The translations under genes were made by a program, and so were the position numbers. A model generated the notes under the pieces. That model was not told the origin of the DNA. It ran no database searches and saw only the letters and a list, made by a program, of their open reading frames with translations. A stretch of DNA of 51,114 nt from Gemmatimonadota bacterium. GTDB taxonomy: Bacteria > Gemmatimonadota > Gemmatimonadetes > Gemmatimonadales > GWC2-71-9. Below, one piece after another: positions 33,367 to 43,374 of the stretch. Position 1 is the stretch's first letter, and every line of letters starts with the position of its first letter. The stretch is taken from the NCBI GenBank assembly GCA_039591795.1, contig JBDHCY010000025.1, positions 1 through 51,114 on the forward strand, read 5' to 3'.

Positions 33367-35829
33367 TTGCTGTGCCTCGCCCTGCTCTGGGTGAGCTCGC
33401 ACCTGACCTTTCGGCTCGACATCAGCGACTTCCTGCCTGAGGAGCCGGCCCGCGAGGGTCGGCTGCCAACGCACCTCTTGCGTGAGCTGTCGGGTAGTGG
33501 ACGCCTCGCGGTCCTTCTCGAAGCCGACGAAGAGATCACCACCAGCGACGTGGAGCTGGTGTTCGGCTATCTCGTCCCGAAGCTCGCCGCGCTGAACGGG
33601 GTGGGTGGCGTGAACGCCAGGCTCACGACCGGGCAAACCCAATTCATCGAGCAGCATCTGCCGCAGCGCATCGTGCTCTATATGGAGCCCGGCGCGCTCG
33701 CCGCCGTAGGCCCCCGGCTGTCACACGAGGGAATCGAAGCGGCCATCGCGTCGATCGACGAGCCGGCCGAGATCCCGCTCCCGGGTGACAGCACGCGCCG
33801 GGCGCGAGATCCGCTCGGCCTCATGCGGCTGGCAGCGCGCGCCGTGCGCGATTGGATCGGGGTCTCGCGCGTTCGCCTGATCGACGGCTTCTACGCCCTC
33901 CCTGGTGCTCGAGCGTTCTTCCTCACGATCGAAACCGAAAACACCCTCGACGACTACGAGCCGACTCGGGCGTTCGTGGAGTCGGTCGAGGGCATCTTGA
34001 GCGAAGCCCGCGCCGATCCGGAGGTCAGCCCGCTTCTCCGGAATCGTCGGTTGTATGCCGTAGGACGGCCGGTCAGCTACGCGTCGGCCGTCGAGATCCT
34101 CTCAGCCGATGGCACTCGGGTCGCACTTGCAGCCACCGTCACGGCCATCCTCTTGATGGCGCTGCTGTTCCGCCGACCGACCGCACCGCTCGTGATCGTG
34201 CTGACGGTCGCCTGCGGACTGCTGATCACCGCCGCCATGGCAGTCGTGATCTACGGATCGCTCAGTCTCGTCGCCTGGGTCTTCATCGGTCTCCTCGTGG
34301 GGCTGGGAGTCGACTTCGGAATCCACATTGCCGTCCACTTCTGGGTGTACGGCTCCACCCGATCCGAACCGGCGCAAGCGCTCGCGTCCGCACTGGCCCG
34401 GCCCGGCTTGAGTATCGCGACCGGCGCCCTGACGAGTGCCGCCGCGTTCTTGACCCTCCTGACCATTCCTTACCCATGGATTCGCCAGCTGGCGACGCTG
34501 ACGGCACTCGGACTGCTCGCGATCCTGGTGTGCAGCTTCACCGTACTGCCCTTGCTGCTCTCACTTTCCAGGCCCGCCACGCGCGACGAGGTGATCTGGT
34601 CGCGTTGGGGAAGACTCTTCGAACGCGCGAGCCGTGCCCAGCCTGCGCTCGCCGTCACGCCGTGGATCGTCCTGGTTGGCGCCAGCCTTGCCGTCGCGGG
34701 TGGGCTGCGGTTCGAGCCGCACCCGTGGAAGCTGGCAGTGCGTGGGAACCCCGAGTCAGCGCGGCTCGACCGGTTGAGCCGCGAAGCGGGTTCGGCGTTT
34801 ACTCCGGTGCTCCTCGTGTCGAGGGGATCAACGGCGGAGCAAGCACTCGACCGCGACCGCGAGGCCGTGCGTCGCCTGAGGCCGGTCGCACTGCGTGCGG
34901 GGGTCGCAACGATTCAATCGCTTGCCCGGTGGCTTCCGGCGCCGGAGGACCAGCGCGCCAACATCCGCTTCGTTCAAGAGCGCCCAGAGCTGTTTTCACC
35001 GCAGCGCTTCCGGCAGGATTTCGAGGACGTCGTCGCCCGAATGGACCGCCCGGATCCCTATCTCACAGAAGAGTACCTGCCCCAAATCACCCGATCGCTC
35101 AATCCCGACATCGACGAGCTGGCCCTGAGCGATCTGCGCGACCTGGGGCTGGGGAGCGAAGTGGATCGACACCTGACGCAGCACGCCGGTGAGCATTTAG
35201 CCGTTTCGTATGTCTTCCTACGGCGGTTCCCCTGGGCAGAGGGGGTCGTGTCCAGATTCTTGAGCGTGGTTCGCGATGCTGGGATCGAAGACTTGCCAGG
35301 AGTGACGCTCGCCGGCGATCCCCTCCGATCGGCCAACCACGCTCAGGTGATTCGACGCACCGTAGCGCTCGCCACCGTCCTCGCCGTGCTGCTCGTGAGC
35401 AGTGTCCTATGGCTCCGCTTCCGCCACGTGTCCCTCGTCGTCTTGTGCTTGATGCCGCTGGCGTGCGGCCTCAGTGCAGCGGTTCTCGTGATGCGATTGG
35501 CCGGAATCGAGCTCAATCTGCTGTCGATCGCGATCGCTCCGATCGTGGTGGGGATCGGAGTCGACGACGGGATTCACGTCGTGGGGCGGCTCCGCGAAGG
35601 GCACGAGCTGGGAGCCGTGTTGCGGGAAGCGGGATCGAGCATCACGATGACGACGCTCACGACGGTGGGTGCCTTCGCATGCCTGGGTCTTGCGACGTTC
35701 ACGGGGGTGCGCGAGGTGGGGCTCGTCGGAGCCGTGGCCCTCCTGGTGTGCCTGCTTGCCTCACTCCACATCATCCCCGTCGGGTGGCGACTCATCGAAA
35801 CAAGGCGCGCCAGACCCGATGGTCCCTAG
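33367..35829 (+). CDS. MMPL/RND family membrane transporter (true start probably upstream, ~33286-33292)
   Basis: Two TM bundles with GLGVDFGIH and GIGVDDGIH motifs, separated by periplasmic domains. Confidence 0.9.
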   Translation: MLCLALLWVSSHLTFRLDISDFLPEEPAREGRLPTHLLRELSGSGRLAVLLEADEEITTSDVELVFGYLVPKLAALNGVGGVNARLTTGQTQFIEQHLPQRIVLYMEPGALAAVGPRLSHEGIEAAIASIDEPAEIPLPGDSTRRARDPLGLMRLAARAVRDWIGVSRVRLIDGFYALPGARAFFLTIETENTLDDYEPTRAFVESVEGILSEARADPEVSPLLRNRRLYAVGRPVSYASAVEILSADGTRVALAATVTAILLMALLFRRPTAPLVIVLTVACGLLITAAMAVVIYGSLSLVAWVFIGLLVGLGVDFGIHIAVHFWVYGSTRSEPAQALASALARPGLSIATGALTSAAAFLTLLTIPYPWIRQLATLTALGLLAILVCSFTVLPLLLSLSRPATRDEVIWSRWGRLFERASRAQPALAVTPWIVLVGASLAVAGGLRFEPHPWKLAVRGNPESARLDRLSREAGSAFTPVLLVSRGSTAEQALDRDREAVRRLRPVALRAGVATIQSLARWLPAPEDQRANIRFVQERPELFSPQRFRQDFEDVVARMDRPDPYLTEEYLPQITRSLNPDIDELALSDLRDLGLGSEVDRHLTQHAGEHLAVSYVFLRRFPWAEGVVSRFLSVVRDAGIEDLPGVTLAGDPLRSANHAQVIRRTVALATVLAVLLVSSVLWLRFRHVSLVVLCLMPLACGLSAAVLVMRLAGIELNLLSIAIAPIVVGIGVDDGIHVVGRLREGHELGAVLREAGSSITMTTLTTVGAFACLGLATFTGVREVGLVGAVALLVCLLASLHIIPVGWRLIETRRARPDGP

Positions 35830-36109: not shown

Positions 36110-36628
36110 TTATGGGCCACTCGAAGCAGCAGGCGCTGTTTCTCCGGCGCTGCCGACGGCTGCCGGAGGGAGCCCTCCCGTGTGGGCGAGGAGCCACCGC
36201 ATGCACCGGTGCCCCACGTCCACGTGATCGAGGAACATCATCGGGCAGGCACCGGGAATCACCGAGATCCCTTGTTCTTTGCAGAGCCGGATCGCTTCGT
36301 CGGACACGCTGCCGGCACCGAATGACCGGTGCATCCACACTCGATGGATCCCGAGTGCGGCGCAGTCGCTCACGATCTGGGTCGTGACGCTGGGATGCGT
36401 GGCGATGACCACCGCGTCGACACCATCCGTGATTGCCGACAGTCCGGCATAGCAATGATCTCCTTCGACCCGCTCGGCGTTCGGATTGACTGGGTACACC
36501 TGATAGCCTGCGTCGCGGAGCCTCTTGTAGACGATGTTCGCCGCCTGCCCGTGCTTCCGTGACACACCCACCACCGCAATCCGTTTCTGCGCGAGGAAAT
36601 CCTCAGCTGCGTCTTTCAGCGTGCTCAT
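36110..36628 (-). CDS. CoA-binding protein (YccU-like)
   Basis: GAGGAGG SD; KRIAVVGVSR, VYPVNP, VWMH and GACPMM. Confidence 0.92.
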   Translation of the reverse strand: MSTLKDAAEDFLAQKRIAVVGVSRKHGQAANIVYKRLRDAGYQVYPVNPNAERVEGDHCYAGLSAITDGVDAVVIATHPSVTTQIVSDCAALGIHRVWMHRSFGAGSVSDEAIRLCKEQGISVIPGACPMMFLDHVDVGHRCMRWLLAHTGGLPPAAVGSAGETAPAASSGP

Positions 36629-36971
36629 CGTCCCTCCTCGACATCCGAGAATTGCTCGCAGTACCGCTCAAAGTCAGTTTTCGTCATCAGACGTGAAGGC
36701 AGAGTGATACCCGCGTGAGCATCCGGAGCAGCGTCCTTCATGAAAATCTCACAGTTTCATTCACAACTTGAGGCCAGCTTGCTCAGCTGGAGTTCGCTGG
36801 CCGATCCAACTACTCGCTGACAAACCGCCCGCCTTCGGGATGAGCACCCCGACCGCCGCGTCCACAGGAATCGTGGGCGATGGACGACCAGATCAGGGCT
36901 CGGTCTCGCGGTGGCACGCTCCGCCAGCCTGCCCGCTGGCATCACCCCTGACGGAGGGATATTCTAGCGCC

Positions 36972-38066
36972 ATGCACGACCCCAACCCCGACCCGCCCAC
37001 GGTGCCGGCTCGAGGCGCCCGCGTCCGGTCAGCTCCAGACGACGTCGAGCGGAGGCTCTCCGAGCTGGGGCTCGAGCGGGTGGACGGCCCAGCCATTACC
37101 TCCGAGGCCATACCTGTCGAAAGTGGCCGCTGGAAGGTCTCGATTAGCCGCCCCGCCATGGGGACGCTGGTTTCCATCTCTGCCATCGTCGACTCTCCGG
37201 AACGCGCAGACCATGCGGCCGGTTGCGCATTCGAAGAGATGGACCGGCTCATCGCGCTCTTCAGCTTGTACGACCACACTTCGGCGCTCACCCGCCTGAA
37301 CGAGTCGGGCAGGCTCGATGGCGCACCGCCGGAGTTGACGCGGGTCGCCCGCGCCGCGCTCGACTACCACCGGATCTCGGGTGGCGCGTTCGAGATGACG
37401 GTCGGGCCAGTCGTCGACCTCTTCCGCGACCGCTCGAACGGCGGACCGAGCCACCTTCCGACACGCGCCGAAGTTGGCGAGGCCATGGAACGGGTCGGGT
37501 CACAGCACGTGCGGGTCTCGCGGCGCAGGATCCGGTTCGAGCGCGACGGCATGGCTGCCACGTTCGACGGGATCGCGAAGGGCGACATCGTCGACGCCAT
37601 CGCGCGCATACTCGACAGGCACGGGCTCCGCCGATACCTCGTCAATGGGGGCGGCGACATCCGAGTGCGTGGGACGGGCGAAGGCGGACTCCCCTGGACC
37701 GTCGCCGTTCGTGACCCCGCCAGCCCCGGATTGCTGCGCGACACGATTCAGCTGACCGACGGGTCTGTGGCGACGTCGGGGGGCTATGAGAATCACTTCG
37801 ACAATGAAATGATCAATCACCACATCGTCGATGCGCGCACCGGCCAGTCGCCCGTCGCGGCCGCAAGCGTGTCGGTCGTGGCCCCGACGGCGGTGGATGC
37901 GGATGCGCTCGCCACGACCGTCTTCGTATTGGGTCCGGCACAAGGGGTGGCCTTCGTAGACCGTATTCGAGCGGCCGCCTGTCTCGTGATCGACCGCCAA
38001 GACCGGCGCTGGACATCCCGGCGCTGGCGGAGTGAATCCACGCCGGGAGGAGAACACCAACCATGA
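36972..38066 (+). CDS. apbE: FAD:protein FMN transferase
   Basis: AMGT, SALTRLN, GAFEMTVGP, GIAKG, NGGGDIR, VATSGGYE, HIVDARTG and ADALAT. Confidence 0.92.
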   Translation: MHDPNPDPPTVPARGARVRSAPDDVERRLSELGLERVDGPAITSEAIPVESGRWKVSISRPAMGTLVSISAIVDSPERADHAAGCAFEEMDRLIALFSLYDHTSALTRLNESGRLDGAPPELTRVARAALDYHRISGGAFEMTVGPVVDLFRDRSNGGPSHLPTRAEVGEAMERVGSQHVRVSRRRIRFERDGMAATFDGIAKGDIVDAIARILDRHGLRRYLVNGGGDIRVRGTGEGGLPWTVAVRDPASPGLLRDTIQLTDGSVATSGGYENHFDNEMINHHIVDARTGQSPVAAASVSVVAPTAVDADALATTVFVLGPAQGVAFVDRIRAAACLVIDRQDRRWTSRRWRSESTPGGEHQP

Positions 38067-38587
38067 CGCTCGGCATGAGTCCCGAACACCCGTACTCCCG
38101 ATTGCAGACCACGACGCTCGTCGCCCTCCGGATGCTCATTGGGTGGCACTTCCTGTACGAAGGCCTCGCCAAGATCGGGAACCCCTACTGGTCGTCCGCG
38201 GGGTATCTCGACGGCGCCCAATGGTGGCTCGGAGGACTGTTCCGCAACCTCGCGGCGAGCGCCACGGCCGTGACGATCATCGACTACGTCAACATGTGGG
38301 GGCTCACCCTGATCGGACTCGGCCTGATGTTGGGGCTGCTGACTCGAACCGCGACGATCGCGGGCATCGTGTTGCTCGCGCTCTACTATCTCGCCGCGCC
38401 GCCTTTCGTCGGACTCGAGTACTCGATTCCGACCGAGGGAAGCTACATCGTCGTCAATAAAGTCCTGATCGAAGCAGTCGCACTGATCGTCCTGTTCGCA
38501 TTCCCGACGGGGCGCATCTTCGGCCTCGACCGTTTCGTCACCTTGAAGCGTGGCACGGCTCACCGTGCGGCGCCGGCACAGGCGTGA
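38063..38587 (+). CDS. DoxX/DoxD-family membrane protein
   Basis: ATGA overlap with apbE; LRMLIGWHFLYEGLAK, IGLGLMLGLLTR, FGLDR; four TM segments. Confidence 0.9.
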   Translation: MTLGMSPEHPYSRLQTTTLVALRMLIGWHFLYEGLAKIGNPYWSSAGYLDGAQWWLGGLFRNLAASATAVTIIDYVNMWGLTLIGLGLMLGLLTRTATIAGIVLLALYYLAAPPFVGLEYSIPTEGSYIVVNKVLIEAVALIVLFAFPTGRIFGLDRFVTLKRGTAHRAAPAQA

Positions 38588-38597
38588 GGGGAAGATC

Positions 38598-40175
38598 ATG
38601 AACGACGAACAGAAGACACCCGAAGGCTGGACCACGATGAGCCGCCGTAGCCTGCTCAAGGCGCTCGTCTCCCTCCCCGTGATCGGCGTCTTCGTCTACA
38701 ACTACCTGCGCAAGCGGGCCGTCGACGACGCCAAGAAGCAGGCCGTCCTGGCCGAGCTCGGCGTGAGCGAGGGCGGGCCGGCCATCATTCCGAACGCGAT
38801 CTCCAAGCCGCCGGGGGAACGAGTCCGGGTCGGAATCGTCGGGTTCGGGGGCGAGGGCGAGGCCCTCGTTCGCCACGCCGGTTTCGCCCACCCCGACTGG
38901 ATCGAGAGCGCGCGCGAGCGCGTCGCAGAGGACCCACGCGACAAGCAGCTCGAGACGTACATCAAACAGGAAGATCTGAACGTCGAGATCACGGCCGTGT
39001 GCGACGTGTTCGACGTCCGTACGGAGCGTGGGATTGCGGCGTCCGCCGTCGATGTGCGGCCGCAGGGACACCCGGCCAACCAGCCCGCGAAACGGTATCG
39101 TCGTTACACCGACATGCTGGAGAGCGGCGAGATCGACGCCCTGATCATCGGGACACCCGACCACTGGCACTCTCGCATTTCCATCGATGCAGCCGCAGCC
39201 GGCATCCACGTCTATTGCGAAAAGTGCATGACGCGCACCGAGGACGAGGCGCTCGCGATGTACGACGCGGTGAAGAACTCCGACATCGTCTTCCAACTCG
39301 GACACCAGAATCGGCAGTCGGAGGCACACAACAAAGCCCGCGAAGTCATCGGCGCGAACATCCTGGGTCCCATCACCTTGGTCGAGTCCACCACCAACCG
39401 CAACACGCCGTGGGGTGCGTGGGTGTGGGACATTCACGAGAAAGGAAACCCGCAGACGATCGACTGGGAGCATTTCCAGGAGCCGGCGGCCAATCGTGTG
39501 CCGTTCAACCTGGAGCGGTTTTTCCGGTGGCGGTGCTGGATGGACTACGGCACCGGGCTTTCCGGTGACCTGCTCTCACACGAATACGACGCGGTGAACC
39601 AGATCCTCGGCATCGGGATTCCGGCGTCCTGTGTCGCGTCGGGTGGGGTCTACTACTTCAAAGACGGGCGCGACGCACCAGACGTGTTCCAGGCCGTCTA
39701 CGAGTATCCCGACCGTGACCTCACCTTCGTCTACAGCGCGACGCTCGCCAACTCGCGGGACCGCGGCTTGGTATTCATGGGTCACGACGCGTCGATGAAG
39801 GTGGGAGGGAGCCTCACCGTGCAGGCGGAGGGCGACTCCACGCGCTACAAAGAGAAGATCGAACAAGGCGTCATCGATCCGTCCGAGGTGATGTTCACCT
39901 ATCGCCCGGGGTTCAAGGGCATCGATGCGGTGACGTCGGCCACGGAACGTTACTTCGCGAGCCGTGGGCTGCTCTATACGTATCGTGGTGGCCGCCGAGT
40001 CTCGGCCTACCACCTGCTGATCGGCGAGTGGCTCGACGTGATCCGAAATGGTGGAGAAACGAGCTGCAACATCGATCGCGGACTCGAGGAGGCCATCACC
40101 TGCCACATGGCGACCCGTTCCTGGCAGGAGGGTCGCAAGGTGGAGTGGGATCCCGTCCGGAGGCGTATCGTCTAG
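38598..40175 (+). CDS. Gfo/Idh/MocA oxidoreductase with Tat-type N-terminus and internal DAVTSAT motif
   Basis: SRRSLLK followed by a hydrophobic helix; VGIVGFGGEG, TPDHWH, HVYCEK, WR...DYGTG...DLLSH. Confidence 0.92.
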   Translation: MNDEQKTPEGWTTMSRRSLLKALVSLPVIGVFVYNYLRKRAVDDAKKQAVLAELGVSEGGPAIIPNAISKPPGERVRVGIVGFGGEGEALVRHAGFAHPDWIESARERVAEDPRDKQLETYIKQEDLNVEITAVCDVFDVRTERGIAASAVDVRPQGHPANQPAKRYRRYTDMLESGEIDALIIGTPDHWHSRISIDAAAAGIHVYCEKCMTRTEDEALAMYDAVKNSDIVFQLGHQNRQSEAHNKAREVIGANILGPITLVESTTNRNTPWGAWVWDIHEKGNPQTIDWEHFQEPAANRVPFNLERFFRWRCWMDYGTGLSGDLLSHEYDAVNQILGIGIPASCVASGGVYYFKDGRDAPDVFQAVYEYPDRDLTFVYSATLANSRDRGLVFMGHDASMKVGGSLTVQAEGDSTRYKEKIEQGVIDPSEVMFTYRPGFKGIDAVTSATERYFASRGLLYTYRGGRRVSAYHLLIGEWLDVIRNGGETSCNIDRGLEEAITCHMATRSWQEGRKVEWDPVRRRIV

Positions 40176-40194
40176 GCGTGCTCACTCAAGACCG

Positions 40195-41319
40195 TCAGCG
40201 ACCGTAGCTGATCTCGGTCGGTTTCTCGAAGAACCGCCCTAGACGGGCGGCTTCCGCCTCGATCTTGCCACGGATCGCCTTGGCGATCTTGCCGAACGGC
40301 TCGACCGTGATTGCGATCTTCTTGCCGACCCGCTTGTACGACCACGTCGCGACGGCACGGCCGTTGTGCAGCACCACAGGATAAATCCACCCGGCCTTGC
40401 GGTACACCTCTTTGTAGTGCGCAGCGTCGATCAGGTGATCCTTGTCCGCATGCCCCAGGAGATAGGGATCGAAATGCGGGAGGAGATTGACGACGTTCGG
40501 GCTCGCGGGTCGGCGCGCGAGCTGCTGCCGGTCACTCCGGAGCAGCCACCGGCGCTCCCCCCGCACCGAGACCTCGACGAGCTCGTCCTCTAGTGTTTCG
40601 AACGCCGCCTGGGCCTCCTTGACCGACATGCCCGTCCACTTGGCGAAGTCACGGAGCGTCACTGGGCCGTAGCCCTGCACGTAGCGACGAAGCAGGTGCG
40701 CGGCAGCCTCGCGCGCGGGAACCGACGGCAGTTCCGGGAGCCATTGGTCGACCAAGATCAACGTGGACTCCGGACCTCGCTCGGGACCGTAGCACACTTG
40801 GCCGGCAATGACTGCCTGTCGCACTACCCCCCACCAGCTCAGCTCGAACCATGCTCGCGCCTTCTTGCTCACTTTCACGCGACCGAGGACGTGCTGGCTC
40901 AGCTCGCGCCGCACCATCGGACCGTCGGCGAGTGCCTGGAGCACGGACTCCGTCACGAGGGCAACATCTCTGGCGGTCACGCCGTATCGCGCGAGGATTC
41001 GACGATCGGCCTGGACTCGGGTCGCCTTCAGGGCACTGATGTAGAAGGGATAGTCGTCTGTCGTGATGAGATGGAGGGTGCCCCGCATCGCGTACGTCTT
41101 GACGAGCGTGCGGTCGCGCCACAACGCGCGGTGGATGTCGTCACGTGTGATCCCGGGCACTCTGGCCCAGAGCTGGAGCGCCGCGGCGGACGTCACCTGT
41201 GCGTGAATGGCGCACACGTCGCGCGCGACGGCGGTGATCGACGAGCCGCGGCGCCGCGCCAGATGATGCCGGCGCAATCGGAAGACGGCGACCTGTGATG
41301 GAGTCACTGAGTGTTTCAT
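40195..41319 (-). CDS. AlkZ/YcaQ-like winged-helix DNA glycosylase family protein (HTH_42)
   Basis: AGGAG SD; AIHAQ, LWARV, MRGTLHL, YGPVTLRDFAKWTG, LLPHFDPYLLG. Confidence 0.88.
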   Translation of the reverse strand: MKHSVTPSQVAVFRLRRHHLARRRGSSITAVARDVCAIHAQVTSAAALQLWARVPGITRDDIHRALWRDRTLVKTYAMRGTLHLITTDDYPFYISALKATRVQADRRILARYGVTARDVALVTESVLQALADGPMVRRELSQHVLGRVKVSKKARAWFELSWWGVVRQAVIAGQVCYGPERGPESTLILVDQWLPELPSVPAREAAAHLLRRYVQGYGPVTLRDFAKWTGMSVKEAQAAFETLEDELVEVSVRGERRWLLRSDRQQLARRPASPNVVNLLPHFDPYLLGHADKDHLIDAAHYKEVYRKAGWIYPVVLHNGRAVATWSYKRVGKKIAITVEPFGKIAKAIRGKIEAEAARLGRFFEKPTEISYGR

Positions 41320-41964: not shown

Positions 41965-42129
41965 GATCAAGGAGACGCTAACCCTCCGTTGATTCCATGT
42001 GCTCAGAATCGTGGCCAAGATGTGATCTGACACCGCGCCATGCCAGCGCGCGGCGCCAGCGCGCCTCCATGGACACGCTCGTACCTGCATGCCACCTTTG
42101 CCGACGTCAATCTACGCCAGAGTCACCCC

Positions 42130-43374
42130 ATGACACCTGACGACGTGCCCTCCGACCGAAGGCCGTTCGACGCCGGTGTGCTCTCTCGCCGAAGCCTGCT
42201 GAAGGCCGCCATGGCGGTGCCCGTTCTGCCCCGTGTTCGCTTCCGGCAGCAAGGAACGCATGTCGCCGTGATCGGCGCCGGCGCGTTCGGAGGCTGGACC
42301 GCCCTGCAGCTCCTGCGGCGGGGCGCCCGGGTGACGCTGGTCGACGCCTGGGGGCCGGGGAACGCGCGCGCCAGCTCCGGCGGCGAGACCCGAGTGATCC
42401 GAGGCATCTACGGCAACAATCGCATCTACGTGGAGATGGTCGTCCGCGCATTGCAGCTCTGGCGGGAGGCCGAGGCGCGGTGGGGCGGGACGCTGTATCG
42501 GCGACTGGGCGCACTGTGGATGACCTCGCGGAACGACCCGTACGTCGACAATGCGCTCCCACTGCTGCGCCAGACCGGGATGCGTGTCGACGACCTCTCG
42601 CTGGCCGACGCCAGCGCCCGGTTCCCGCAGGTGAACTTCGAGGGCGTGGAACGCATCGTGTACGAGCGGGAGGCAGGATACCTCCGCGCGCGCCTCGCCT
42701 GCGAGTTGGTGCTGCGTTGGTTCATCGGAGAGGGAGGCGAGTACCGGCAGCGACGGGCCACACCGGGACAACTCGTGGGCGATGGCATGGATGCCATGCA
42801 GCTCTCGGATGGCTCCACCCTGACGGCCGATCAGTACGTCTTTGCGTGCGGGCCGTGGCTCGGGACCCTATTCCCCGACGTCATCGGAGAACGCATCGCC
42901 CCGACTCGACAAGAGGTGTTCTACTTCGGAGCGCCGGCTGGCGACCCGCGGTTCGTCGAAGAGCAGATGCCTGTCTGGATCGACAACGGGGCACGGCTCT
43001 ACTATGGCATCCCCGGAAACCAGTGGCGCGGCTTCAAGCTGGCCGACGACACGCGCGGCGGGTCGTTCGACCCAACCGACGGAGACCGCACTGCGAGTGC
43101 CGAGGCGCTCGAGTCGGCCCGCGAGTACCTCAGCTTCAGGTTCCCGGCGCTGGTGGACGCACCTCTCGTCGAGGCCAGAGTGTGCCAGTACGAGGACAGC
43201 CCCGACGGTCACTTCATCGTCGACCGGCACCCGTGGGCCGAGAACGTGTGGCTCGTCGGAGGGGGCTCTGGACACGGCTTCAAGCATGGCCCGGCGCTCG
43301 GCGAATACGTAGCGCAACTCGTCTTGAGCCAGCGGGACGTGAACCCGTTCTTCGGATTGTCGCGGCTCGGATGA
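42130..43374 (+). CDS. FAD-dependent oxidoreductase, monomeric sarcosine oxidase/SolA-like, Tat-like N-terminus
   Basis: VIGAGAFG, SSGGETRVIR, VCQYEDSPDGHFIVD, GSGHGFKHGPALG; SRRSLLK. Confidence 0.9.
   Translation: MTPDDVPSDRRPFDAGVLSRRSLLKAAMAVPVLPRVRFRQQGTHVAVIGAGAFGGWTALQLLRRGARVTLVDAWGPGNARASSGGETRVIRGIYGNNRIYVEMVVRALQLWREAEARWGGTLYRRLGALWMTSRNDPYVDNALPLLRQTGMRVDDLSLADASARFPQVNFEGVERIVYEREAGYLRARLACELVLRWFIGEGGEYRQRRATPGQLVGDGMDAMQLSDGSTLTADQYVFACGPWLGTLFPDVIGERIAPTRQEVFYFGAPAGDPRFVEEQMPVWIDNGARLYYGIPGNQWRGFKLADDTRGGSFDPTDGDRTASAEALESAREYLSFRFPALVDAPLVEARVCQYEDSPDGHFIVDRHPWAENVWLVGGGSGHGFKHGPALGEYVAQLVLSQRDVNPFFGLSRLG

Follow-up and report, generated by a model that had tools for sequence, protein, structure and literature searches.

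Positions 36972 to 40175 of a stretch of 51,114 nucleotides from a Gemmatimonadota bacterium (positions 1 to 51,114 of contig JBDHCY010000025.1, assembly GCA_039591795.1; this whole stretch is called the window below) carry one tight co-directional operon on the + strand, recognized from its open reading frames (ORFs) and Pfam matches. Its three genes encode a paralogue of ApbE, the transferase that loads flavin mononucleotide (FMN) from flavin adenine dinucleotide (FAD) onto proteins, a small membrane protein of the DoxX family, and a Gfo/Idh/MocA dehydrogenase dependent on nicotinamide adenine dinucleotide or its phosphate, NAD(P). That the dehydrogenase is itself the likely substrate of ApbE is a well-supported proposal, and flavinylation of its candidate loop, taken alone, is judged rather probable because of a sister subfamily and a dedicated ApbE paralogue, both described below. 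For the fuller scheme, in which ApbE loads FMN onto Thr449 of a dehydrogenase that the twin-arginine translocation (Tat) pathway exports with a captive NAD(P), and this FMN then carries electrons on to DoxX and quinone, the chances appear evenly balanced. The features on which the argument draws are these, with conservation given where relevant for A2, an alignment of 84 sequences.

36972..38066, + strand: apbE, encoding a FAD:protein FMN transferase paralogue of 364 aa (Pfam ApbE PF02424, 229 bits against a cut-off of 25.6, E 8e-68).
38063..38066, + strand: ATGA, shared by the stop codon of apbE and the start codon of doxX, an arrangement of translational coupling (read from the sequence).
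38063..38587, + strand: doxX, encoding a small DoxX-family membrane protein of 174 aa with four hydrophobic segments (Pfam DoxX PF07681, 28.6 bits against a cut-off of 23.6).
38586..38594, + strand: Shine-Dalgarno-like GAGGGGAAG, in the gap before the dehydrogenase start (read from the sequence).
38598..40175, + strand: gene for the Gfo/Idh/MocA NAD(P)-dependent dehydrogenase of 525 aa (Pfam PF01408, PF22725 and PF02894).
38640..38660, + strand: twin-arginine motif SRRSLLK, residues 15-21 (R16 and R17 at least 90% conserved in A2).
38661..38708, + strand: hydrophobic h-region ALVSLPVIGVFVYNYL, followed by RKR, with no Ala-x-Ala site.
38841..38858, + strand: Rossmann glycine motif GFGGEG, residues 82-87 (G82 and G84 invariant in A2, G87 nearly so).
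39924..39944, + strand: DAVTSAT, residues 443-449, the candidate ApbE flavinylation site with Thr449 as acceptor (from a heptad table of 196 sequences).

The tight coupling of the genes (the ATGA overlap, and a gap of 10 nt between the end of the doxX stop at 38587 and the dehydrogenase ATG at 38598), the twin-arginine N-terminus and the DAVTSAT heptad had been pointed out in a first-pass annotation of this DNA, and all three were found as described. Across the three operon proteins there is a single match to D..[ST][GS]A[ST], and shuffling the dehydrogenase sequence produces one in 107 of 20000 trials, a chance of ~0.5%; the operon is a real feature, and the motif is no chance occurrence. It lies within a stretch of ~45 residues that ordinary Gfo/Idh/MocA members lack. 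In the AlphaFold2 (AF2) model, residues 440-444 have a predicted local distance difference test (pLDDT) value < 50, and a helix spanning 448-455 has Thr449 as its second residue. Counting back from the acceptor at position 0, the motif given in the available part of PMC12052999, D-x-x-[S/T]-G-A-[S/T], is matched by D443 at -6, T446 at -3, A448 at -1 and T449 itself.

Conservation of the loop was followed outwards from the window. DA[VIM][TS]SAT is present in 119/119 close homologues among the matches listed (72-82% identity, mostly Gemmatimonadota to judge by their source names). At 37-59% identity, all 15 full-length representatives of 50%-identity clusters carry [DE]xx[ST][GST][AP][ST]; 11 fit D-x-x-[ST]-[GS]-A-[ST], with the canonical DAVSGAT occurring twice, three have Pro at -1 (DAVTTPT twice and DAISSPT) and one has Glu at -6. 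In the table of 196 heptads, many of them from close kin, position 0 is T 191 / S 5, position -3 is T 175 / S 17 / A 4 and position -6 is D 182 / E 14. The subfamily keeps the heptad [DE]-x-x-[STA]-[SGTA]-[AP]-[TS] across at least five phyla, and it is absent from more distant homologues.

A neighbourhood scan with one genome per species returned 80 loci, 45 belonging to the subfamily and 35 to more distant homologues. The subfamily loci come from Gemmatimonadota, one Aminicenantes metagenome-assembled genome (MAG), Neomarinimicrobiota, many Bacteroidota (among them the cultured Odoribacter laneus YIT 12061, Prevotella sp. 10(H), Carboxylicivirga sediminis JR1 and Algoriphagus alkaliphilus DSM 22703) and one Gammaproteobacteria MAG. 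A doxX gene of the window's type adjoins the dehydrogenase gene in 45/45, upstream in 41 and downstream in 4; the heptad is present in 44/45, the remaining locus being cut by a contig end. The distant loci have neither the heptad (0/35) nor doxX (0/35) nor apbE (0/35). doxX was also adjacent in 19 of 20 further Gemmatimonadota loci, the exception beginning at a contig edge. The loop consensus is therefore found where DoxX is found, a link between the loop and the membrane partner; such a coincidence of motif conservation with an adjacent doxX is what the first-pass annotation had proposed to look for. Frequent companions in Bacteroidota are a large 3-keto-disaccharide-hydrolase/HEAT protein (19 loci), xylose-isomerase-like TIM barrels, further Gfo/Idh/MocA genes and a GH3, and they point to periplasmic 3-keto-glycoside metabolism.

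A second Gemmatimonadota family (L094-L104) constitutes a paralogue group at 45% identity, with E-A-[IVL]-T-[SA]-A-T in 13/13 copies; its dehydrogenase genes are duplicated in tandem at L098 and L099. Here doxX is adjacent in 11/11 loci, and an ApbE is encoded elsewhere in 13/13 genomes.

Searches with an ApbE hidden Markov model placed apbE near 5/45 subfamily loci. In two from Gemmatimonadota (L006 and L007) it lies directly upstream, in the window's order apbE-doxX-gfo, and a Bacteroidota MAG (L045) has an isolated apbE-doxX-gfo unit resembling the window's. The locus of Prevotella sp. 10(H) (L017:8070-17320) is a longer co-directional series of Gfo, DoxX, Gfo with the motif, Gfo, 3-keto-disaccharide hydrolase, TIM-barrel isomerase, ApbE and TatC, and at L022 a convergent apbE stands at the cluster end. 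Prevotella sp. 10(H) has more ApbE copies elsewhere in its genome.

Within the phylum, 151 Gemmatimonadota genomes were sampled, in tallies that count the unpublished genome G057 among those without orthologues; none of the positive results depends on it. A dehydrogenase orthologue of at least 65% identity is present in 10/151, the window's genome included. The order apbE-doxX-gfo recurs in 8/8 further orthologue loci that have upstream DNA, so that, with the window, L006 and L007, apbE is in the same operon in 11/11; a ninth further locus is split, the dehydrogenase starting one contig and apbE-doxX ending another. An ApbE at least 47% identical to the window's is found in exactly the 10/10 dehydrogenase-holding genomes and in 0/141 others, where the next-best ApbE is at most 42% identical, and the three genes are gained or lost as a unit across four Gemmatimonadota families. 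The association of the motif with apbE neighbours, also put forward at first pass, is thus seen in this phylum as an apbE paralogue that shares both operon and distribution with the dehydrogenase. Among genomes that hold the dehydrogenase and doxX without an adjacent apbE, ApbE is encoded elsewhere in 10/10 tested; over all the other tested genomes with the module, the count is 15/15. Two orthologue loci look damaged: in G023 (L093) the dehydrogenase is split into two overlapping frames, and in G046 (L088) the match to the operonic ApbE has an in-frame TGA, either of which could reflect decay or assembly errors.

Further evidence comes from a sister subfamily. In a related genome, an apbE (L116:7977-9008, - strand) lies directly upstream of the gene (L116:6699-7943, - strand) for P0273, a Gfo/Idh/MocA protein of 414 aa with a Tat signal, whose loop reads GVHTSATLS. 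Profile-profile alignment relates P0273 to the window subfamily with probability 100 at 28% identity, and sets HTSAT on VTSAT; in the AF2 model of P0273, loop residues 330-343 have pLDDT < 50. The loop is kept in 120 homologues among the matches listed (59-100% identity), in the variants TSAT, TTAT, TGAT, TSAS, TTAS, TSPT, TTPT, TKSS and TKPS. In a sample of 80 metagenomic loci of this type (L117-L196, 47-86% identity), the loop cores are TGAS 21, TGAT 15, TGPT 15, TSAS 13, TSAT 4, AGAS 3, TTAT 2, TTAS 2 and TAAS 1, besides one frameshifted and three truncated loops; the core met most often is the canonical [ST]-G-A-[ST], and Gly occupies -2 in 54/80.

Where at least 300 bp of upstream DNA is available, apbE is directly upstream of the P0273-type gene in 61/65 loci (59 counted by script, with L147 and L186 added on inspection; L135, L166, L191 and L195 lack it), forms with Pro at -1 included. 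It is the only widely conserved neighbour (62/80 loci), the others, a Tat-signal TIM-barrel protein, TonB-type receptors and an esterase, occurring in at most 17 loci, and doxX in 0/80. Orthologues of P0273 at 40% identity or above are present in 2/151 phylum genomes, and relatives at 32-37% in 7 others are not on ApbE-holding contigs. On this pattern the P0273 proteins probably form another, larger group of dehydrogenases modified with flavin. According to the available part of PMC8238504, the same kind of reasoning had led to the proposal of DUF2271 and DUF3570 as ApbE substrates before their confirmation.

The genome of the window (91% complete) has three ApbE genes. One lies in an Rnf/Nqr cluster on contig C101, beside the genome's only match to FMN_bind (PF04205), which agrees with the earlier statement that the window has no FMN_bind gene. 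The second, on contig C26, has a lipoprotein-like N-terminus and is divergent from another Gfo/Idh/MocA gene with a Tat signal (TAT_signal E 1.3e-4); the pair lies at L105:8604-9974 (-) and L105:10528-11844 (+). It was considered as support for flavinylation and set aside, for its Gfo/Idh/MocA protein is without a [ST][GSA][AP][ST] stretch and the pair is of no help. A DUF2271 search of the genome found none, and the corresponding search for DUF3570 was uninformative, its control giving no match.

A reading that does without flavinylation takes the loop as a structural, substrate-binding or DoxX-docking element, with ApbE serving some other substrate or FAD hydrolysis or flavin trafficking, and DoxX as a mere anchor or partner. 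Several observations lean this way or weigh against our proposal. Ser447 of the window protein is a deviation from the published motif at -2, where the 196 heptads have S 180 / T 8 / G 4 / A 4; position -1 is A 188 / P 8. In a model protein, exchanging Gly for Ala or Ala for Val in the motif cut flavinylation to ~50%, and exchanging Asp for Ala had a minor effect (available part of PMC12052999). In 40/45 subfamily loci no apbE was seen in the available flanks (at most 10 kb on each side and often less), and in the 45%-identity paralogue group a nearby apbE was found in 0/11. The 10/10 co-distribution partly reflects a single operon passed down by descent, so the ten cases are not independent. 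A flavin-binding pocket was not identified; fused ApbE-Gfo or DoxX-Gfo forms were not found among proteins of 920-2625 aa at E<=1e-30, a negative of small weight. Distant Tat-type homologues without doxX or apbE retain a degenerate loop (AQPS, AEPS, TSPT, AAPS, GDAS) in which Ser or Thr is kept at position 0, so the hydroxyl may predate the full consensus and reflect an older structural role.

We nevertheless regard this reading as unlikely. The substitutions stay within the flavinylation consensus, and canonical SGAT and TGAT variants exist. Two of the subfamily loci with Pro at -1 (L006 and L092) still have an operonic apbE, and the objection from Pro is weakened by the P0273-type Pro forms that retain apbE upstream. 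The ApbE paralogue is strictly co-distributed with the dehydrogenase, and the searches of the genome for FMN_bind and DUF2271 left no known substrate type unaccounted for; in the sister subfamily the sole conserved neighbour is apbE and the loop is mostly T-G-A-[TS].

The enzyme proposed to carry the flavin is a complete dehydrogenase. Its Pfam scores over the Rossmann N-domain and the alpha/beta C-domain, 43.9 bits for PF01408, 31.3 for PF22725 and 30.6 for PF02894, each exceed the cut-off, and its AF2 model, built on A2 with a mean pLDDT of 87.6, has the fold of the Gfo/Idh/MocA family; E208, K209 and further family residues are invariant or almost so in A2. Foldseek matched the model to many family members with a probability of 1.00, the top matches being levoglucosan dehydrogenase 6a3j and the Alistipes glucoside-3-dehydrogenase AL3 8tdf. 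A PDB profile search gave 8tdf at E 2e-42, and 1ofg and 1h6a, both glucose-fructose oxidoreductase (GFOR), at E 2e-19. The nearest structures in both searches are sugar dehydrogenases that act at C3, including glucuronide-3-dehydrogenase and DgpA. The best NCBIfam match, to the BT_2158 glycoside 3-dehydrogenase (NF058561), reaches 109.5 bits against an equivalog cut-off of 750 (E 1.5e-31) and is confined to residues 162-374 (HMM match 153-339); by these scores the protein is a relative, not a member, of the BT_2158 group.

The role of DoxX is less secure than that of the loop. The window protein falls in the DoxX family by its PF07681 score, above the gathering score, and outside the DoxD equivalog (NCBIfam NF041179), for which it reaches 25.7 bits against a cut-off of 300. 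Two loops are conserved, NPxWSSxGYL and EGSY, and by the positive-inside rule they are predicted to lie on the periplasmic side of the membrane, as would the exported dehydrogenase. DoxX was also considered as an ApbE target and rejected, for its AASAT in the window is unconserved and is replaced in orthologues by ASNPS, AANPE and the like. Modelling of the complex with DoxX, a check suggested at first pass, was carried out by co-folding the two proteins with FMN and NAD. The score was 0.48, with 0.00 for the best of 3 controls; in the calibration the mark was reached by 58/80 solved complexes and 2/110 mismatched pairs, scores of <= 0.60 including 7 of the 80 solved complexes and both passing mismatches. 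At least 48% of contacts agree between runs and the partner pLDDT is at least 76; the inputs (custom alignments and two riding ligands) differ from those of the calibration. The score lies in the weak range, which counts against the scheme; the modelling lends slight support to an association and yielded no interface. DoxX is nonetheless the candidate quinone site, because it is invariably adjacent and the three-gene units contain no other acceptor gene.

It could also be imagined that the dehydrogenase is flavinylated but that DoxX is an anchor or assembly factor, the FMN delivering its electrons to a soluble carrier or O2, or that the flow is reversed, from quinol to a keto-sugar. The apbE-linked sister subfamily is in its favour, as FMN would evidently work without DoxX in these relatives, and so are the remote likeness to the quinone-reducing DoxD and the weak complex score. 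Against it are the adjacency of doxX throughout the motif-bearing subfamily, in the 45 loci as in the 19 of 20 further ones, and the window operon and L045, which hold three genes only and offer no alternative acceptor candidate. The passage of electrons from NAD(P)H to FMN and on to quinone would, moreover, be energetically downhill by midpoint potentials. We consider this explanation improbable, though not negligible.

The location of the enzyme bears on the whole scheme. After the twin-arginine motif and the hydrophobic stretch, the AF2 model has helices at residues 16-24 and 27-54, and as no Ala-x-Ala cleavage site follows the hydrophobic stretch, the N-terminus is probably an uncleaved Tat signal anchor. 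In relatives the twin-arginine type is S/T-R-R-x-[FL]-L-K, and distant relatives have ordinary Tat signals that look cleavable. The usual ApbE is periplasmic and membrane-anchored, with a signal peptide or lipobox (PMC12052999, in its available part). The window ApbE, which scores 123 bits against NCBIfam PRK10461, under the equivalog cut-off of 498, meets the ApbE family by its PF02424 score; it and the ten other operonic Gemmatimonadota ApbEs have polar N-termini in which, by eye, there is neither a hydrophobic segment nor a lipobox. By sequence, the operonic Gemmatimonadota ApbE would be cytoplasmic. The ApbE of the Prevotella cluster L017 is likewise without a signal, and those of L045 and L022 have signals of lipoprotein type. 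A cytoplasmic flavin transferase would suit a Tat substrate, because such substrates are exported folded and with their cofactors.

The remaining alternative, that the N-terminus is a plain membrane anchor, the catalytic domain facing the cytoplasm and ApbE acting in place to give a cytoplasmic-side substrate:quinone oxidoreductase, would fit the signal-less operonic ApbE, the missing signal-peptidase site and the lack of a Pfam TAT_signal match to the dehydrogenase at E<=0.01, but it is highly improbable given the conserved R16 and R17 in a motif of S/T-R-R-x-[FL]-L-K type, the cleavable-looking Tat signals of more distant relatives, the tatC gene in the Prevotella sp. 10(H) cluster, the lipoprotein signals by which the linked ApbEs of L045 and L022 would act outside the cytoplasm, and the description of the closest characterised relatives as Tat-exported in the available part of PMC8121099.

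The operonic ApbEs have in common an N-terminal L-x-x-L-G-[FL]-E-R, which in the window reads RLSELGLERVD (within 36972-37100). It resembles a conserved L-x-E-L-G-[VLIF] past the membrane helix of the dehydrogenase (AVLAELGVSEGG, residues ~48-57, 38740-38770). The shared stretch may be a docking element, or a coincidence.

In the scheme that we favour, with Tat export and flavinylation of the loop, the operon would be a self-contained module for the oxidation of a periplasmic substrate, most likely a sugar or glycoside. The dehydrogenase would bind NAD(P) tightly as it folds in the cytoplasm, and the signal-less ApbE, encoded just before doxX, would transfer FMN from FAD to Thr449 of the DAVTSAT loop, taken to be exposed. 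The loaded enzyme would then be exported by Tat and be kept by its uncleaved signal anchor at the membrane, beside the four-helix DoxX. In catalysis the substrate would reduce the captive NAD(P)+, the tethered FMN would take the hydride from NAD(P)H, and the FMN electrons would pass to quinone at or through DoxX. This route would regenerate a nicotinamide cofactor that is not exchangeable in the periplasm. The covalent FMN, its attachment before export, the path from NAD(P)H through FMN to quinone, the quinone site in DoxX and the sugar substrate are thus all presumed steps. A dehydrogenase flavinylated by ApbE and passing electrons to DoxX or quinone was the core of the first-pass annotation; its substrate half has gained support from the motif, doxX, apbE and the sister subfamily, and its electron route stays conjectural. 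More generally, a whole clade of Tat-exported Gfo/Idh/MocA enzymes may be direct ApbE substrates in which a surface-loop FMN reoxidises captive NAD(P)H, that is, periplasmic respiratory dehydrogenases, the window branch acting through DoxX on quinone and flavinylated before export, and the apbE-paired sister branch using another acceptor. For this wider proposal we would put the chances slightly under even.

Each part of the proposed module has known counterparts. Thiosulfate:quinone oxidoreductase DoxDA and other DoxX proteins also pair a small multi-helix membrane protein of the DoxX fold with a redox enzyme, but the partner here is a Gfo/Idh/MocA dehydrogenase, and the DoxD equivalog score is far below its cut-off. 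Na+-NQR and other NADH:quinone oxidoreductases resemble the proposed route, from NAD(P)H to covalent FMN to quinone; they differ in that the NAD(P) here would stay captive as a prosthetic group and receive its electrons from a periplasmic substrate, and in that the module has two subunits with no evident Fe-S centres or ion pump. GFOR of Zymomonas mobilis recycles its cofactor by reducing a second sugar, has neither a DoxX partner nor linkage to apbE, and to our knowledge has no loop of the DAVTSAT type. It is of the same family and is Tat-exported with tightly bound NADP (PMC8121099, in the available part).

The glycoside 3-dehydrogenases BT2158 and Alistipes AL3 are the best relatives of the window dehydrogenase in sequence and fold, and the Bacteroidota loci of its homologues share with them the 3-keto-disaccharide hydrolase and the xylose-isomerase-like TIM barrels. 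The window operon, unlike these, is without 3-keto-sugar companions, and the BT_2158 score of its dehydrogenase falls far short of the equivalog level. For BT2158 the published proposal is the reduction of ‘another as yet unidentified sugar’, not of a flavin or quinone (PMC8121099, available part).

The established ApbE substrates (FMN_bind of NqrC and RnfG, NqrB and RnfD, DUF2271 and DUF3570) have, as here, a Thr or Ser acceptor after Ala with Asp six residues upstream. As far as the available parts of PMC4348036, PMC12052999 and PMC8238504 go, they are also alike in having apbE in the same cluster and an extracytosolic site, and in NqrC the acceptor is at the start of a helix, as is Thr449. 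They differ in that the carrier here would be a full NAD(P)-dependent Rossmann dehydrogenase and not a small FMN-binding domain, with no Pfam FMN_bind match, with Ser for Gly at -2 and with a linked ApbE that has no signal. The survey of flavinylation left out signal-less ApbEs by design, and 4% of genomes were still left with an ‘orphan’ apbE, according to the available part of PMC8238504. The first-pass annotation knew of no described flavinylated Gfo/Idh/MocA enzyme, and our search of one literature library likewise found no published link of ApbE, or of DoxX, with Gfo/Idh/MocA proteins, although the supplementary lists of apbE neighbours in PMC8238504 could hold PF01408. Gfo, MocA, DoxX and PF01408 go unmentioned in the main text of PMC8238504 and in the available parts of a 2025 review of ApbE and a 2024 preprint on flavinylation contexts.

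The surroundings of the operon in the window are as follows.

33367-35829, + strand: MMPL/RND-type transporter.
36110-36628, - strand: CoA-binding protein, the upstream flank.
40195-41319, - strand: AlkZ-like DNA glycosylase, the downstream flank.

The immediate flanking genes are on the opposite strand, so the operon consists of exactly three genes, and none of the genes listed has an evident tie to it. Scans of 36500-40400 for sigma-70 promoters and intrinsic terminators gave nothing exceeding shuffled sequence. A DAO-type FAD-dependent oxidoreductase (42040-43374, +; Pfam DAO E 5e-45) with the N-terminal SRRSLLKAAMAVPVL lies 2 kb downstream of the operon; it has the twin-arginine heptad of the dehydrogenase, so Tat may export this redox enzyme as well.

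Bacteroidota, Gemmatimonadota, Acidobacteriota and related bacteria of soil, sea and gut abound in periplasmic Gfo/Idh/MocA dehydrogenases, with which their 3-keto-sugar routes of glycan breakdown begin. If the scheme is true, a tethered FMN together with DoxX would be a concrete answer, for one large subfamily, to the question of how NAD(P)H is reoxidised outside the cytoplasm, and glycan oxidation would then feed straight into the quinone pool and hence into energy conservation. The known ApbE substrates would be joined by a new class, a complete NAD enzyme instead of a small flavin domain, and there would be a case of cytoplasmic flavinylation ahead of Tat export; a definite partner would also be at hand for DoxX proteins, most of which have no assigned role.

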